Part shown: positions 12,300 through 54,733 of the stretch, piece after piece | Numbering within the stretch: the stretch's first letter is position 1 | Layout: each line of letters starts with the position of its first letter | From: an uncultured bacterium | GTDB taxonomy: Bacteria; Krumholzibacteriota; Krumholzibacteriia; JACNKJ01 | Direction: 5' to 3' | Length of the DNA stretch: 64,000 nt | Assembly (NCBI GenBank): GCA_963695095.1 | Contig: CAVOFT010000001.1 | Span: forward strand, 2,304,001 to 2,368,000 | Position numbers and translations under genes: made by a program | Notes under the pieces: generated by a model | The model's database searches: none | What the model was told of the DNA's origin: nothing | What the model saw: only the letters and a program-made list of their open reading frames with translations

Positions 12300-12338
12300 G
12301 GGGGCTCGTCCTCCTGCTTGCCGAGTCGGCCAAAGAAA

Positions 12339-12437
12339 GGGCCAGGCGGCTCCACGGCACATCCGAGGGCTTTCGTACCGCTGCTATCTTCCGATCCTGA
12401 CGGAGTTGGAAAATTCGGATTGCGTGGGACCTGGCCC
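12339..12437 (-). ncRNA. ffs: Signal recognition particle RNA (small, 4.5S type)
   Basis: Minus strand contains TCAGGATCGGAAGATAGCAGC (domain IV motif) inside a long hairpin closed by GGGCCAGG/CCTGGCCC; canonical position upstream of dnaX. Confidence 0.92.
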
Positions 12438-12461
12438 AAGAACATGCCATCACTGATTCGG

Positions 12462-12547
12462 CGGAGAGGCAGGGATTCGAACCCTGGGAGCCCAAAGGAC
12501 TCAACGGTTTTCGAGACCGTCCCGTTCAACCGCTCCGGCACCTCTCC
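12462..12547 (-). tRNA. tRNA-Ser(CGA)
   Basis: GGAGAGG acceptor stem, anticodon arm ACGGT-CT-CGA-AA-ACCGT, long variable arm, GGTTCGAATCC. Confidence 0.96.
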
Positions 12548-12553
12548 AGCAGG

Positions 12554-12638
12554 CGGAGAGTCTGGGATTCGAACCCAGGGTACCTTTCGGTACACACGAT
12601 TTCCAGTCGTGCCGATTCGACCGCTCTCGCAACTCTCC
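12554..12638 (-). tRNA. tRNA-Ser(GGA)
   Basis: Anticodon arm CACGA-CT-GGA-AA-TCGTG, long variable arm, GGTTCGAATCC. Confidence 0.96.
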
Positions 12639-33244: not shown

Positions 33245-34024
33245 ATGTCCATCCTCACGCCGATAGCCGCCCGGAGCCGGCGCCTGCTCCCAGTCCTGCT
33301 CGCTCCGCTCGCCTTCCTCGCTCTCGCCTCCACCCCGGGTTGGGCCGCGGCCTGGCTGCTCGACCTGGAGGGGGCCCGCGTCTGGAGCGGTTACAATGAC
33401 GTGCGCATCCCGGGTGATGGCGGCACGCGCTTCTCCCTGACCGAGGATCTGCGTAGCGAGGCGGGTTTCTGCGGGCGCCTGCGATTGGGAATCGTGCTCG
33501 CCGAACGGCATCACCTGAGCGCCTTCGCCGCGCCGCTTCGCCTCGATGCCGCGGGCCAAGCGCCAGCAACCCTGCTGTTCGCCGGCACGGAGTTTCCCGC
33601 CGCCAGCCGCCTGTCGGCAAGCTATCGCTTCGATTCCTATCGCCTGACCTATCGCTACCGCCTGCGCGCGACTTCCCGCTTCACCGGCTGGCTCGGCTTC
33701 ACCGCGAAACTACGGGACGCCGAGATCGCCGTGGCCGGCGCGGGACTGCGCGCCAAGAAGACGAACACCGGCTTCGTGCCCCTGCTCGCCTTCCGCGGCG
33801 ATTGGCGTCTCGACGAGCGCTTCGGAATCAGCTGCGAGGGCGACGCGCTGGCTGGCGGTCCAGGCCGGGCGGAGGACGTCTTCCTGGGCCTGACCTACCG
33901 CCGGAACTCCCGCCTGACGCTGCGGGGTGGCTATCGGCTCATCGAAGGCGGCGCCGACGTGGCCGAGGTCTACTCCTTCGCTCGCCTCGACTTCGCGAGC
34001 CTGGGCCTGGAACTCTCCTTCTAG
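33245..34024 (+). CDS. Probable outer-membrane beta-barrel protein
   Basis: GGAGGT site, signal peptide, alternating strands (YRFDSYRLTYRY), C-terminal LGLELSF. Confidence 0.75.
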   Translation: MSILTPIAARSRRLLPVLLAPLAFLALASTPGWAAAWLLDLEGARVWSGYNDVRIPGDGGTRFSLTEDLRSEAGFCGRLRLGIVLAERHHLSAFAAPLRLDAAGQAPATLLFAGTEFPAASRLSASYRFDSYRLTYRYRLRATSRFTGWLGFTAKLRDAEIAVAGAGLRAKKTNTGFVPLLAFRGDWRLDERFGISCEGDALAGGPGRAEDVFLGLTYRRNSRLTLRGGYRLIEGGADVAEVYSFARLDFASLGLELSF

Positions 34025-34055
34025 CCAGCGCTGCCGGTCGACGAGGACGAAATGA

Positions 34056-34093
34056 AAAGCGGGGCCCGCCTGCAGCGGGCCCCGTTCTTCTTC
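34056..34093. terminator. Bidirectional intrinsic terminator
   Basis: AAAA-GCGGGGCCCGC-loop-GCGGGCCCCGT-TCTTCTT between convergent genes. Confidence 0.75.
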
Positions 34094-34144
34094 AGCGCCG
34101 GTCGCTCCTCAGGGCGCGACCGGGTGTGGGTCCTGGGGCGCCGA

Positions 34145-34456
34145 CTAGCGCCAGTTCCCCCCACCGCCACCGCGGCCACCGCCGCCGCCGCCGCCGCGGC
34201 CGCCGCCGCCGCCTTCGCGGCGCTCCTCGGCCTCATTGACGCGCAGGGTGCGGCCGCCGAACTCGAAGCCATCCAGCGCGCTCAGCGCCGCGGTCGGGTC
34301 CTCCATCTCCACGAAACCGAAGCCGCGGGGGCGACCGGTCTCGCGATCGTTGATCAGGTTGACGGACGTGACGACACCGTGCTTCTCGAAGAGAGCGCGG
34401 ATCTCGTCCACCGTGGCGCTAAAGGGCAGGTTGCCCACGTACAGTTTCTTGGCCAT
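34145..34456 (-). CDS. RRM RNA-binding protein with Gly-rich tail (copy 1)
   Basis: RNP2 LYVGNL, RNP1 RGFGFVEM, LRVNEA, Gly/RGG tail. Confidence 0.95.
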   Translation of the reverse strand: MAKKLYVGNLPFSATVDEIRALFEKHGVVTSVNLINDRETGRPRGFGFVEMEDPTAALSALDGFEFGGRTLRVNEAEERREGGGGGRGGGGGGGRGGGGGNWR

Positions 34457-34655
34457 TTCTACTCCGAATCGCCCCATTACCGTGAATTAGCGGGAAGGCG
34501 TCGCGAGCCGCTCGCGGGCCTCGACTCCCAAGCTTCTCTCGGATTGGCGCTGAAGAATCGCGGGCGCGACGAGCGCGGACGGCATTCTGGCAACGGCCAT
34601 CGATTGGGCGGGGGCAACGGCCCATCGATCCTGAGGCGGCTTCTTCAAGGGGATG

Positions 34656-34684
34656 AATATAGCTCAAATGGCCCCACTTGTCAC
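34656..34684 (-). promoter_or_regulatory. Sigma70-type promoter of RRM copy 1
   Basis: Minus strand GTGACA-17 nt-TATATT, implying a leader of about 190 nt. Confidence 0.65.
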
Positions 34685-34724
34685 CGAATAAAGCAGGGCG
34701 AGCCTGGAATCGACGGCGGCAATC

Positions 34725-35738
34725 TCAGGCGGACGCCCCTGCCGACCTCAGCGCGGCGAAGCCGACGAGCCGGTTGGAGGTCTCGTCCCAGAGCCGGTAC
34801 TGCAAACTGCGGACACTGGCGCGCAGGGTGAGGGGGGGCACGCCGCGGAAGAGCGGACTGGAGCGGTGGCAGCGCTCGAGGAAGTAATTCGGGATCCGCG
34901 GGCTCAAATGGTGGATGTGATGGTAGCCGATATTGCCCGTGAACCACTGGAGAACCCGCGGCAGCTTGTAAAAGGAGGAGCCCCCCAGGGCCTGCTGGAG
35001 GTAGTCCCAGCGCCCGCCGCGGGCCCAGTAGGTGCCGTCGAAGGTATGCTGCACGTAGAAGAGCCAGATGCCCACGGTGCCCGCGATCAGGATCACAGGC
35101 AGCTGCAGGGCCAGGTAGGCCTTGAAGCCGATCGTCAGGCCCATCACCAGGGCGACGGCCGCCAGGCCGAGATTCGTCCACACCTTGCTCCAGCGCGCAC
35201 GGGCGCTCTCGCCGCGGTGCCAGAAGCGGTAGTTGAGGAGGAAGACATAGAACGGGCCCAGACCCAGCATCACGAGGGGGTGGCGATAGAGCCGGTAGGC
35301 CAGCCGCCGGTGGCGCGGCAGCGCCAGGTACTCGGCAATGGTGAGCGTCCAGATATCGCCGCTGCCCCGTCGGTCCAGATCCCCGGAGGTGGCGTGGTGG
35401 CGGGCGTGCTCCTGACTCCAGCCGGTCGAGGGCAGGAAGGTCATGAGGCCCGTGAAGTAGCCCACGAAACGGTTGGCCCAGCGCTCCCGGAAGAAGGAGC
35501 CGTGGCCGCAGTCGTGGCAGATGATGAAGCTGCGCACGAGGAAGCCCGCCGCCGGCAAGACGAGGGCCAGCGCCAGCCAGTAGGAAACACGCAGGCACAG
35601 GAGCATGGCGGCCCAGAGCAGCAGGTAGGGCAGCACGGAGGTCGCGATCTGCAGCAGGCTACGGGAGAGGCTGGGCCGCTCGAATGGAGCAACCGCGGCG
35701 CGCCAGTCGGCCTGGACGGCCTTCTTCGCCAAGCTCAT
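34725..35738 (-). CDS. Membrane fatty acid desaturase (Bacillus Des-like)
   Basis: Three His boxes HDCGH, HARHH, HHIHH; WLFYVQH; PRIPNY. Confidence 0.93.
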   Translation of the reverse strand: MSLAKKAVQADWRAAVAPFERPSLSRSLLQIATSVLPYLLLWAAMLLCLRVSYWLALALVLPAAGFLVRSFIICHDCGHGSFFRERWANRFVGYFTGLMTFLPSTGWSQEHARHHATSGDLDRRGSGDIWTLTIAEYLALPRHRRLAYRLYRHPLVMLGLGPFYVFLLNYRFWHRGESARARWSKVWTNLGLAAVALVMGLTIGFKAYLALQLPVILIAGTVGIWLFYVQHTFDGTYWARGGRWDYLQQALGGSSFYKLPRVLQWFTGNIGYHHIHHLSPRIPNYFLERCHRSSPLFRGVPPLTLRASVRSLQYRLWDETSNRLVGFAALRSAGASA

Positions 35739-35811
35739 GGAACCGCCTAGGCTGAAAGTTGAGCCCTGGCGGCCAGGAGGCCGCCAGGGACAGTCGACTC
35801 GGATAAGTCGG

Positions 35812-36162
35812 CTACCAGCGGCCCCCGCCGCCGCCGCCGCTGCGGCCACCGCCGCCGCCGCCACGCGGGCCGCCACCGCCGCCGCGCATGCCGCCGCCGC
35901 CACCGCCGCCACCGGTGCGCTCACGGCGCTCCTCGGCCTCGTTCACACGCAGGGCGCGGCCGCCCATCTCGTAGCCATCGAGGGCGGTGATCGCCGCCTG
36001 GTGATTCTCCATCTCGACGAAACCGAAGCCGCGGGGACGGCCCGTATCGCGGTCGGTGATCAGGGTGATGGAGTGCACCGTGCCGTGCTTGCTGAACAGC
36101 TCGCGCAGCTCGTCCTCGGTGGCCGTGAAAGGAAGGTTGCCCACGTAGAGCTTCTTGGTCAT
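35812..36162 (-). CDS. RRM RNA-binding protein with Gly-rich tail (copy 2)
   Basis: LYVGNL, RGFGFVEM, LRVNEA, long Gly/RGG tail. Confidence 0.95.
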   Translation of the reverse strand: MTKKLYVGNLPFTATEDELRELFSKHGTVHSITLITDRDTGRPRGFGFVEMENHQAAITALDGYEMGGRALRVNEAEERRERTGGGGGGGGMRGGGGGPRGGGGGGRSGGGGGGRW

Positions 36163-36350
36163 CAGGATCTCCGGATCGCCCCAGGTTCATCGACGGAGCA
36201 CTGGCGCGCACATTGGCGGCGAGTCGGCGCTCATAGCTTCTCGGGATTGCCTACCATGACCAGCGAATTCGCCGGCCACCGGGGCAGCGGATCGTGATTC
36301 GACGGGGGCGAAGCGGCGGATCCATCCTCGAGGAGTCGTCTGTAGCCCGC

Positions 36351-36379
36351 AATGTAGCCTACGGGAAGGGCCCTGTCAT
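36351..36379 (-). promoter_or_regulatory. Sigma70-type promoter of RRM copy 2
   Basis: Minus strand ATGACA-17 nt-TACATT, implying a leader of about 180 nt. Confidence 0.65.
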
Positions 36380-36382
36380 CGG

Positions 36383-36418
36383 AAAAAACTCAATTCAGGC
36401 GGGATCGGCCCTGAATTG
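36383..36418 (-). terminator. Intrinsic terminator after the FAD oxidoreductase
   Basis: CAATTCAGG/CCTGAATTG stem followed by TTTTTT on the minus strand. Confidence 0.65.
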
Positions 36419-36427
36419 CGCTCCGGC

Positions 36428-38273
36428 TCAGGGCGAGCGGTAGTCCAGGCTGAGCTCCCGGGCCACCCAGGCGCTGTCTCCCGCGAAGGGCGCTAGCTGG
36501 GCGGTGGCGAAGTCGGCGTCGGCGGGCGAGAGATCCCGGTACCAGTAGATGGGCACTCCCCGCGCGACCAGGGCCTCCTGCAGGGCCTGGACCGCGAGCG
36601 GATCGCCGTGGACGCTCTGCGGCAGCCCACCGGTCGCCAGGCAGTGGGCCGCGAGGCTACCGGCGGCCTCGCCGAGCGTCCACTCCACGGCATGCGTCCT
36701 CGTGGCCGCGCTGGCCAGCCGGGTAGCGCCCGCGCTCTTGCCCGCCGGGATCAGGTTCGTGGGTGCTTCGAGGACGAGCGCTCCCAGGGGAATCTGGAAG
36801 GGCAGCACGGCAATCGCGAGCGGCAGCTCCTCGCAGGGGCCCGGGTGGATGTCGATCGGATAGTCCCCCACCCCGATCGCGTCGGCGACGAAGGGCCCCC
36901 GCAGCCGGCCCGGGTTGGCCGCGGCGCTGAGATCCTGCTCCCGCAGGCGCTGACGCGTTCGTGCCCGCCGCGCTTCCCGCACATAGGGAAAGCGCGCCAG
37001 GCCGTCCTCGGTGCCCAGCGCATCCCGGTTCAAGGCCAACTCGGGATGCCCCACCCCATCGGCGTGCGGCGCCTCGGTCTGCAACCAGTAGAGGAAGCCC
37101 AGGCTGAGCTCCCGCGCCGCCAGCAGGTGCGCGAGCGAGGCGGAGGGGTCGTCCTCGAGGAGGCTGCCGCCGCGGTAGTCGATCGCCGGCCAGTTGATCA
37201 GGGCCAGATCGGAGGTCCTGGCTGCCGGCGCGGAAGAGCTTGCGATCGATGAGGCGGCGATAGGTCCAGAAGGAGCCGGGCAGATTCGGCGTCCGCGCGA
37301 AGACCCGGAACAGGGCGTAGCGCTGGCCGAAGCGCGCGTCGGGAAGCACGACGCGAGGGCCGAAGGGCTGCTGCTTGCGATTGGCGGCGTAGTTGCCCGG
37401 CTCCGGGATGAGCTGCAGTTCCCCTGGCCGCTGCTCGAGGACGAAGGGGTAGGTGAAGGCCTGCACGCAGTCCGGCCGTGCGCGGAGGGGCGCACTGGGC
37501 TCGCCGGCGTCCGTCTGGGCTTCCGCCCCGCTGGCGAAGGCGGCGCCGCTCAGCGGCAGGAGGTCCCCCAGCTCGCTGGCATCCAGGAAGAAGGCGGCTT
37601 CCACCCGGCAGAGACCGGCGCTGCCGAGGTCCACGAGATCGAGCCAGCGCAGGCGCTCAGCGACCCGGACAGCGCGCAGCGGCCGATGCCGCAGCAGGAT
37701 GGTGAGCCGGCCGGCGGCCACATGCGGCGCGAGCAGTGACTCGATCGCGCGCAGGGCAACGCGAGGCTCGCAGGCGAGGCTGCCCACCCAGCAGTTGCCG
37801 GGGTTGAGACGCGGGTCGGCCGCAGCGGCCGGCAGCAGGCGCGGGTCGCGGCGGTAGGCCTCGCGAATGGCCGCCCGCAGGGCCTGATAGCTGCGCGTGC
37901 CGCCGCAGCGCTCGACGAGCGGGCTCTCGTCGAAGGCGGCAATGCCCTGGACCGTCATCTGCCCGCCCAGCCAGTCCGTCTCCTCGCTCAGCACCACCCG
38001 GTAACCCGCCTCGCAGACTGCCAGGGCCGCCGCCACCCCGGCGAGACCGCCGCCGCAAATGGCGACATCGCCCTCGAAGCTGAGGGCCGGCACCCGCTGG
38101 TAGGGGACGCTCAGCACGCGGAGACCCTGGACGTCGAGGAGGGCTAGATCCGGCGACTTGGCCGCCGCGGCGAGCAGGTCCGTGGGCGCGATCAAGCCGG
38201 CGAGCCACAGAAGCGTCCAGCCTCCGGCCCGGGCGCGGCGGCGCGGACGCAGGACGGGACGCGGTCGCGACAT
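36428..38273 (-). CDS. FAD-dependent oxidoreductase; one frameshift near 37215
   Basis: GGGLAGVAAA, EETDWLGGQMT, DASELGDL; second frame has LINWPAIDY, PYVREARR, YPIDIH, PFQIPLGAL. Confidence 0.82.
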
Positions 38274-54472: not shown

Positions 54473-54546
54473 TACGCCCAGGAGGGCTCGAACCTCCAAC
54501 CTTCTGATCCGTAGTCAGATACTCTATCCAATTGAGCTATGGGCGC
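54473..54546 (-). tRNA. tRNA-Arg(ACG)
   Basis: GCGCCCATAGCTCAATTGGATAGAG, anticodon arm TCTGA-CT-ACG-GA-TCAGA, GGTTCGAGCC. Confidence 0.96.
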
Positions 54547-54550
54547 AGGG

Positions 54551-54641
54551 CGGAGAGGCAGGGATTCGAACCCTGGGTGAGCCTTTAAAGCCCACACTCG
54601 CTTAGCAGGCGAGCACCTTCGGCCAACTCGGTCACCTCTCC
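54551..54641 (-). tRNA. tRNA-Ser(GCT)
   Basis: Anticodon arm CTCGC-CT-GCT-AA-GCGAG, long variable arm, GGTTCGAATCC. Confidence 0.96.
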
Positions 54642-54651
54642 CAGCGACAGG

Positions 54652-54733
54652 CGGAGGACGAGGGACTCGAACCCCCAAGGGCAAGCTCCGGCGGTTTTCA
54701 AGACCGCTGCCTTACCAGTTAGGCTAGTCCTCC
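54652..54733 (-). tRNA. tRNA-Ser(TGA)
   Basis: Anticodon arm GCGGT-CT-TGA-AA-ACCGC, GGTTCGAGTCC. Confidence 0.95.

Follow-up and report, generated by a model that had tools for sequence, protein, structure and literature searches.

The window analysed here, a stretch of 64,000 nucleotides (nt) from contig CAVOFT010000001.1 of an uncultured bacterium, contains two genes for glycine-rich RRM proteins, rbp1 and rbp2, each of which is preceded by a copy of an element of about 180-200 nt termed the type-1 RRM leader. On comparative sequence evidence, this leader is a conserved structured cis-regulatory RNA that lies outside Rfam, and, since a helix next to the Shine-Dalgarno (SD) sequence joins the ribosome-binding site to the loop of a hairpin, it probably controls the amount of RRM protein. 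The reading that we tentatively prefer is that of a lineage-specific cis RNA on glycine-rich RRM mRNAs which would set translation initiation, with the RRM proteins themselves as the likeliest effector.

Mapping of the two leaders and their transcription

A covariance model built from 20 leaders (R1) and a second one built from nine leaders of genera g3 and g5 and of metagenomes (R3), from which genus g1 was excluded in order to avoid circularity, were matched to the window, and pairing partners were taken from RNAduplex and from single-sequence folding. The local helices are numbered P1 to P4, and the helix that joins the loop of P2 to the ribosome-binding site is called the long-range helix. 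The NCBIfam model Rbp_regulator scored 87.6 bits with rbp1 and 88-95 bits over the RRM pair of the window, under its cut-off of 100. The features are as follows.

34148..34456, minus strand: rbp1, glycine-rich RRM protein of 103 amino acids (aa); Pfam RRM_1, E 6.6e-21
34454-34456, minus strand: rbp1 start codon
34684..34656, minus strand: rbp1 promoter, GTGACA-17-TATATT, 10 of 12 consensus matches
34457..34649, minus strand: rbp1 leader (type-1 RRM leader), about 190 nt; R1 match 34453-34647, 137.5 bits; R3 match 34454-34646, E 4.6e-8
34629..34647, minus strand: rbp1 P1 5' strand (AAGC..CUC.GGAU); RNAduplex with 34531-34546, -11.5 kcal/mol
34600..34628, minus strand: rbp1 hairpin P2 (UCGAUGGG / CCAAUCGA), which appears in the single-sequence fold
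34610-34620, minus strand: rbp1 P2 loop (CCGUUGCCCCC), identical with the 5' strand of the long-range helix
34547..34599, minus strand: rbp1 P3, hairpin of variable sequence
34531..34546, minus strand: rbp1 P1 3' strand (AAUCC-GAGAGAAGCU), identical with the second of the four blocks described below; RNAduplex
34484..34530, minus strand: rbp1 hairpin P4 (GGGAG..CGCGAG-CGG-CUCGCG..CCUUCCC)
34462..34476, minus strand: rbp1 long-range helix 3' strand (GGGGCGAUUCGG), overlapping the SD GGAG (34462-34465)
35815..36162, minus strand: rbp2, glycine-rich RRM protein of 116 aa; Pfam RRM_1, E 6.3e-22
36379..36351, minus strand: rbp2 promoter, ATGACA-17-TACATT
36163..36344, minus strand: rbp2 leader (type-1 RRM leader), about 181 nt; R1 match 36160-36343, 123.8 bits; R3 E 3.1e-9
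36304..36316, minus strand: rbp2 long-range helix 5' strand (CCGCUUCGCCCCC), inside the loop of P2 (36294-36324)
36234..36249, minus strand: rbp2 P1 3' strand (AAUCC-CGAGAAGCU), partner 36325-36343; RNAduplex
36169..36183, minus strand: rbp2 long-range helix 3' strand (GGGGCGAUCCGG), overlapping the SD GGAG (36169-36172)
34728-35738, minus strand: fatty-acid desaturase gene, between rbp2 and rbp1

The original prediction, made from the letters of the window, had named matching promoters for the two genes and four collinear blocks shared by leaders that otherwise differ. All eight block coordinates proved exact (34462-34476, 34531-34546, 34602-34615 and 34628-34636 for rbp1; 36169-36183, 36235-36249, 36296-36309 and 36324-36333 for rbp2), and a promoter scan of 33900-36600 returned exactly two sigma-70-like sites, the very two that had been named, where shuffles average 0.1. 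The leaders of relatives are likewise preceded by TGACA-17-TATATT. Judged from these motifs, transcription would start near 34647-34649 for rbp1 and near 36343 for rbp2, and the two promoter positions thus give the leader lengths listed above.

That the leaders are long, as had also been proposed, was borne out by four RNA libraries from four metatranscriptomic studies, in which contigs link the leader with the RRM coding region. The rbp1 contigs reach 34604, 34604 and 34622, which is 148-166 nt upstream of the ATG, and carry 2-3 differing letters in 320-380, and the rbp2 contigs span 36145-36330 and 36124-36330, extending 168 nt upstream of the ATG. Over the bins between 34646 and 35815, which hold the desaturase gene and promoters, cover by the RNA libraries is close to nil, with a trace in one run only (X2, depth 1.86, two bins); this gap fits the predicted starts and argues against DNA carry-over, though it amounts to only a hint.

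Predicted fold of the leader

For 15 leaders, RNAalifold predicted the long-range helix and no other structure, with nine pairs, three of them changed on both sides, in which CCG pairs with CGG and CGCCCC with GGGGCG. This is the pairing of CCG..UCGCCCC with GGGGCGA..CGG, overlapping GGAG, that had been put forward from the two window copies, and over 20 leaders its two parts are 98.3% (CCG:CGG) and 85.6% (UCGCCCC:GGGGCGA) paired. The U-G and C-G alternatives by which the window copies differ were said to preserve the pair, and they do so more widely, the column pair 35/192 being CG in 15 leaders, UG in three and UA in two. When P2 and the long-range helix were scored together in a MAFFT alignment of the 20 leaders (A4), they were 88.9% paired, against 29-55% with slid partners; four pairs were changed on both sides, and the covariation score was reached by none of 500 shuffles. 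Two C-G pairs of the long-range helix are swapped for U-A in G010_b and G011_b (CUGCCCUC with GAGGGCA), and in leaders of the type found on a third RRM gene of the source genome, rbp3, the helix is shifted and extended (GUAUCGCCC with GGGCGAUAUG). In single-sequence folding of the rbp2 leader, the long-range helix is present in both the minimum free energy (MFE) fold and the centroid, and in the rbp2 clade it can be extended over GAUCC immediately after the SD.

Hairpin P2 (UCGAU/AUCGA) is 90% paired over the 20 leaders and, as its loop also supplies the 5' strand of that helix, P2 and the long-range helix would make up a pseudoknot or a pair of competing states. Hairpins P3 and P4 were each found in all 20 leaders, P3 with sequences that are unrelated between clades and P4 as a GC-rich hairpin whose helices are 69-77% paired, with three of five pairs in each changed on both sides. 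P1, a probable helix in which the 5' end (CUYCUC..GGAU) would pair with an internal box (AUCC..GAGAAG), was recovered in 20/20 leaders by per-sequence duplexes, which were relied upon because the covariance-model alignment failed to align P1 in one register. The boxes GAGAAG and CGCGAA are conserved and unpaired in the fold. In the resulting model, P1 would close hairpins P2 and P3, P4 would follow, and the P2 loop (CCG-nn-UCGCCCC) would join GGGGCGA-nn-CGG-AG. The original prediction had not included helices P1 to P4, the genome's third copy or the identity of the helix 5' strand with a hairpin loop.

An alternative pairing of the 5' CUYCUC box with the SD was dropped, its duplex z ranging from -2.6 to +1.9 and lying below -1.5 in two of 20 leaders. 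No open reading frame (ORF) within the leader is conserved in position or length over the 20 leaders, four of which lack any ORF of at least 20 aa ending within the leader; a leader-peptide attenuator was rejected for want of a conserved short ORF.

Distribution of type-1 and type-2 leaders

The leader of rbp3 (L003, outside the window) carries the same boxes as those of rbp1 and rbp2. RRM genes were found in 40 of 41 related genomes, and the type-1 leader stands on RRM genes of G001, G002, G004, G006, G010 and G011. A search of 151 genomes of the class with R1 returned 15 copies in seven genomes, all of one family (genera g1, g3 and g5) and probably of Krumholzibacteriota, and every one of the 15 ends at an RRM start codon. 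These seven genomes hold 16 RRM genes, 15 of them with a type-1 leader, the leaderless sixteenth being of a different paralogue type (MKRL..., L038). Collection of leaders from relatives, which had been suggested as a check, thus yielded an element conserved over three genera with its pairs kept by compensatory change, although its known reach is narrow, comprising three genera of an uncultivated lineage. In metagenomes, a DNA-pattern scan returned at least 122 stretches, and among the matches listed ten have an RRM start downstream; at least five new distinct leaders were obtained, which are not an unbiased sample for the long-range helix because the search pattern fixed parts of it, and the remaining RRM-linked stretches duplicate G001.

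R3 recovered all 11 g1-type leaders offered (E 2e-15 to 1e-5), the window pair at full length, and matched the rbp3 leader with E 2.2e-15; in the 64-kb window it found nothing besides the two leaders at E<=1. A protein-based scan of genome contigs found type-1 boxes before the start codon in none of the 80 loci listed, and the box of a second leader type, described below, in L053 only.

The RNA had originally been described as belonging to no recognised family, and this held up in Rfam 15, where no match was found to the leaders in the region (33500-37500, E<=10) or in 16 related loci (E<=1); the cmscan of 33500-37500 at E<=10 gave five weak matches, none in a leader and none to RF01697 or cspA. 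At gathering score, the whole window gave matches to signal recognition particle (SRP) RNA and five tRNAs only. A literature search for such a leader returned only the Chlorobi-RRM motif and work on cyanobacterial Rbp proteins.

Other RRM genes of the class are preceded by an unrelated structured leader, termed type 2, of about 165 nt before the RRM start (L012, L014, L018, L020, L044, L045, L053 and others; none in the window). Four hairpins are predicted in it, the last of which (ACCGG-n-CCGGU) immediately precedes UGGAGA, and compensatory changes are seen in 22 of its 26 predicted pairs. Its covariance model, R2, found one to seven copies each in 72 of the 151 genomes, and the type-2 leader has no match in Rfam. 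Inside the family, type-1 and type-2 leaders are mutually exclusive by genus.

A few RRM loci stand apart. In three genomes of family f3 (L013, L016 and L021) a tRNA-like sequence is situated some 110 nt upstream of the RRM gene, whose leader is shortened, the CCGG..GGAGA box being all that is retained. RRM genes of a third paralogue type, with the N-terminus MKRL or MKRI (L038, L042 and L043; G002, G007 and G008), are without either leader type. In G009, a 99% complete genome of the same family and of genus g3, the RRM gene and both leader types were not found with the query used; the other three genus-g3 genomes have both the RRM gene and the type-1 leader.

Folding energetics and temperature

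Forcing the long-range helix gave the MFE fold in 11 of 20 leaders, and in 20 of 20 the forced helix was better, by 1.6 to 17.1 kcal/mol, than a fold in which its 3' strand was forbidden to pair. The probability that the SD is unpaired at 37 C is <=0.35 in 15 of the 20 leaders. Between 10 and 50 C, predicted SD pairing shifts by more than 0.2 in two leaders (nearest-neighbour model, pseudoknots excluded), and the SD helix, unmelted over this range in the other 18, speaks against a simple heat-melting thermometer. Of the temperature-sensing or autoregulatory cis-RNA that had first been proposed, the conserved, uncatalogued RNA with an SD-adjacent helix stands, and a heat-melting form of the ROSE or fourU type receives no support from this nearest-neighbour modelling. 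On a cspA-like cold switch or on protein binding, this modelling of folding with temperature says nothing.

Genomic context

The desaturase gene lies 3' of the rbp2-type gene throughout genus g1 (G001 and G002 included) and on one metagenome contig (L206); on L054, too, a desaturase gene comes after the RRM gene. The stretch that separates the rbp2 stop from the start of the desaturase gene holds an 11-bp hairpin (at about 35750-35790) with no U-run behind it, which makes read-through from rbp2 into the desaturase gene possible, and a terminator scan placed a terminator-like site at 34084..34060, beyond rbp1. Upstream of the rbp2 promoter is a gene for an FAD-dependent oxidoreductase (PF12831; 36660-38273, minus strand), and the long overlapping ORFs in the GC-rich stretch around it are probably not genes. 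The RNA genes that were found by the gathering-score scan consist of the SRP RNA with two tRNAs beside it and a further three tRNAs in a cluster (12337-12638; 54473-54733, minus strand).

Proposed control of translation and its likely effector

In the proposed mechanism, the long-range helix, once formed, would limit access of the 30S subunit, and the leader would thereby set the rate of translation initiation; control at this step is suggested by a leader that has neither a conserved ORF nor a terminator-like site. P2 and the long-range helix would constitute the switch, as a pseudoknot or as two competing states. Our guess is that the RRM proteins bind to the leader of every paralogue and tip the balance between P2 and the helix, and the outcome, likewise a guess, would be negative feedback together with cross-regulation among the RRM paralogues. 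Temperature may work on the same switch. Feedback by the RRM proteins is favoured since the type-1 leader occurs on RRM genes only and on all glycine-rich paralogues, since this gene family has another leader, with strong covariation, in sister lineages, and since the two leader types exclude one another by genus within the family. It is also favoured by Synechocystis, where deletion of rbp2 and rbp3 is described as raising rbp1 mRNA (PMC12232666).

Several observations weigh against this reading or against parts of the fold. The 20 leaders amount to about seven effectively independent sequences, so that the compensatory changes may represent perhaps two or three events. When P1 is scored in fixed columns, 52-63% is paired, which is low because the register varies between clades, and its duplex energy lies clearly beyond shuffles (z below -2) in only seven of the 20 leaders. 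The rbp1 leader of the window and its close relative L206 favour a helix-free fold: in the rbp1 leader the helix costs 8.2 kcal/mol to force and the SD is predicted to be 0.98 unpaired. Folded alone, neither window leader exceeds its shuffles in stability (z +0.90 and -0.60). In the three leaders of the rbp3 type the SD (AAGGAG) comes immediately after the helix, outside it, and direct occlusion of the SD is thus not universal. Finally, control by temperature would be equally compatible with the desaturase neighbour and with cyanobacterial Rbp proteins being induced by cold.

Leaders of the rbp3 type hold an AUG within GGGCGAUAUG (L003:1780-1800), the 3' strand of the helix; this AUG shares its reading frame with the main start codon, which follows 15 nt further on and is the one served by the strong SD AAGGAG.

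The desaturase neighbour and cyanobacterial cold induction support the main rival to feedback by the RRM proteins, a switch in the mRNA that responds to cold as in cspA; we regard this rival as rather unlikely. At low temperature the leader would refold, a pseudoknot or P1/P2 state alternating with an extended helix that occludes the SD, and synthesis of the RRM proteins in the cold would need no protein effector; two competing states are indeed possible because the helix 5' strand doubles as the P2 loop. A leader of about 190 nt before a gene for a small nucleic-acid-binding protein recalls cspA as it is described in PMC6386945; glycine-rich cyanobacterial Rbp proteins are reported to be often cold-induced (PMC12232666), and the rbpA1 5' untranslated region (UTR) is given a role at low temperature (Ehira 2005, as cited in PMC4152365). 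The position of the desaturase gene between rbp2 and rbp1, an arrangement kept in genus g1, points the same way. Such a switch fits less well with the 10-50 C modelling, in which SD pairing moved by more than 0.2 in only two of 20 leaders, albeit with a model that is blind to kinetic and pseudoknotted states, nor did the cspA model of Rfam match anywhere in 33500-37500. The source genome also has a single cold-shock domain (CSD) gene of its own, located elsewhere, so that the RRM proteins need not replace Csp.

It is improbable that the leader serves as a platform for some other trans factor, whether a small-molecule ligand, a small RNA or an RNase that affects mRNA stability or processing. 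In complexity, a multi-helix fold with the unpaired boxes GAGAAG and CGCGAA matches some riboswitches, but the 15 genomic copies all stand before RRM genes and never before a metabolic or transport gene, which would be unusual for a ligand sensor; the link to one metabolic or transport pathway by which riboswitches are recognised is absent from these 15 copies.

Less probable still is a transcription attenuator with P4 as a conditional intrinsic terminator. The GC-rich P4 hairpin is present in 20/20 leaders and is followed in the rbp3 type by a U-rich run (GGUGUCAUUUUAUCC), but no U-run was found after P4 in rbp1 or rbp2, the terminator scan gave no site inside either window leader, and the RNA-library contigs pass through P4 to the coding region.

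That the blocks are a functionless residue of gene duplication is hardly credible and largely refuted, for although the three RRM genes of the genome are paralogous (72-77% identity) and upstream DNA would have been co-copied, the blocks persist in three genera whose proteins share about 75% identity and in which P3 and the linkers can no longer be aligned, the pairs show compensatory changes and the leave-genus-out model still detects the leaders.

Feedback by the RRM proteins also admits a broader statement, which we hold with somewhat less confidence: bacterial single-RRM proteins might generally keep their own level in check by binding to fast-evolving, lineage-specific structured leaders, the type-1 leader being an RRM-stabilised pseudoknot over the ribosome-binding site that, in one sub-lineage, replaced an older type-2 leader without loss of the control loop. 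The occurrence of two leader types on one gene family suggests that the RNA-binding protein stays constant and the RNA turns over. If this is true, the leaders would be the first natural high-affinity RNA ligands of bacterial RRM proteins and would reveal what it is that these proteins recognise. Bacterial RRM proteins are common, and little is known of their targets and regulation beyond cyanobacteria and Bacteroides; the type-1 leader provides a concrete, testable control element and a candidate for a natural binding site. The apparent exchange, within a single family, of one structured leader for another to which it is unrelated, while the genes stay the same, would be a clean case of regulatory-RNA turnover.

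Comparison with known systems

The Chlorobi-RRM motif (RF01697; Weinberg et al. 2010, PMC2864571) is described as a candidate structured cis-RNA upstream of RRM genes in one bacterial lineage, and the type-1 leader likewise lies directly upstream of an RRM-domain gene. The two come from different phyla, however, and, compared by covariance-model scan only, the Chlorobi-RRM model had no match in 33500-37500 (E<=10) or in the 16 related loci (E<=1). The thermosensor in the cspA 5'-UTR is presented in PMC6386945 as a long leader before the gene for a small, stress-linked nucleic-acid-binding protein, in which alternative folds gate the start region; the type-1 leader differs in that it has no Rfam match, that the downstream genes encode RRM_1 and not CSD proteins, and that folding predicts no temperature effect. 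Closer in gene content are the cyanobacterial rbp 5'-UTRs, such as that of rbpA1 in Anabaena variabilis (Ehira et al. 2003, 2005, cited in PMC4152365), which precede glycine-rich single-RRM genes and are implicated in the accumulation of mRNA or protein. These belong to another phylum, no cyanobacterial leader family was among the Rfam matches, and they are set beside the type-1 leader by description.

The type-2 leader shares with type 1 the RRM gene family, a similar length, a helix that immediately precedes the SD and absence from Rfam, but its architecture is different, R1 and R2 each miss the other type, and among words of five to seven letters only GGAGA is common to the two.

Autoregulation of ribosomal-protein operons offers a parallel in the rpsO pseudoknot, which is bound by S15 and whose structure overlaps the ribosome-binding site. 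There, as here, the gene for an RNA-binding protein stands behind a structure that overlaps the ribosome-binding site and unrelated RNAs serve different lineages, binding of the type-1 leader by RRM proteins being hypothetical; the same pattern of RNA turnover on a constant protein is seen in ribosomal-protein leaders. Among structured leaders on RNA-binding-protein genes, the type-1 RRM leader is a new and structurally unrelated example.

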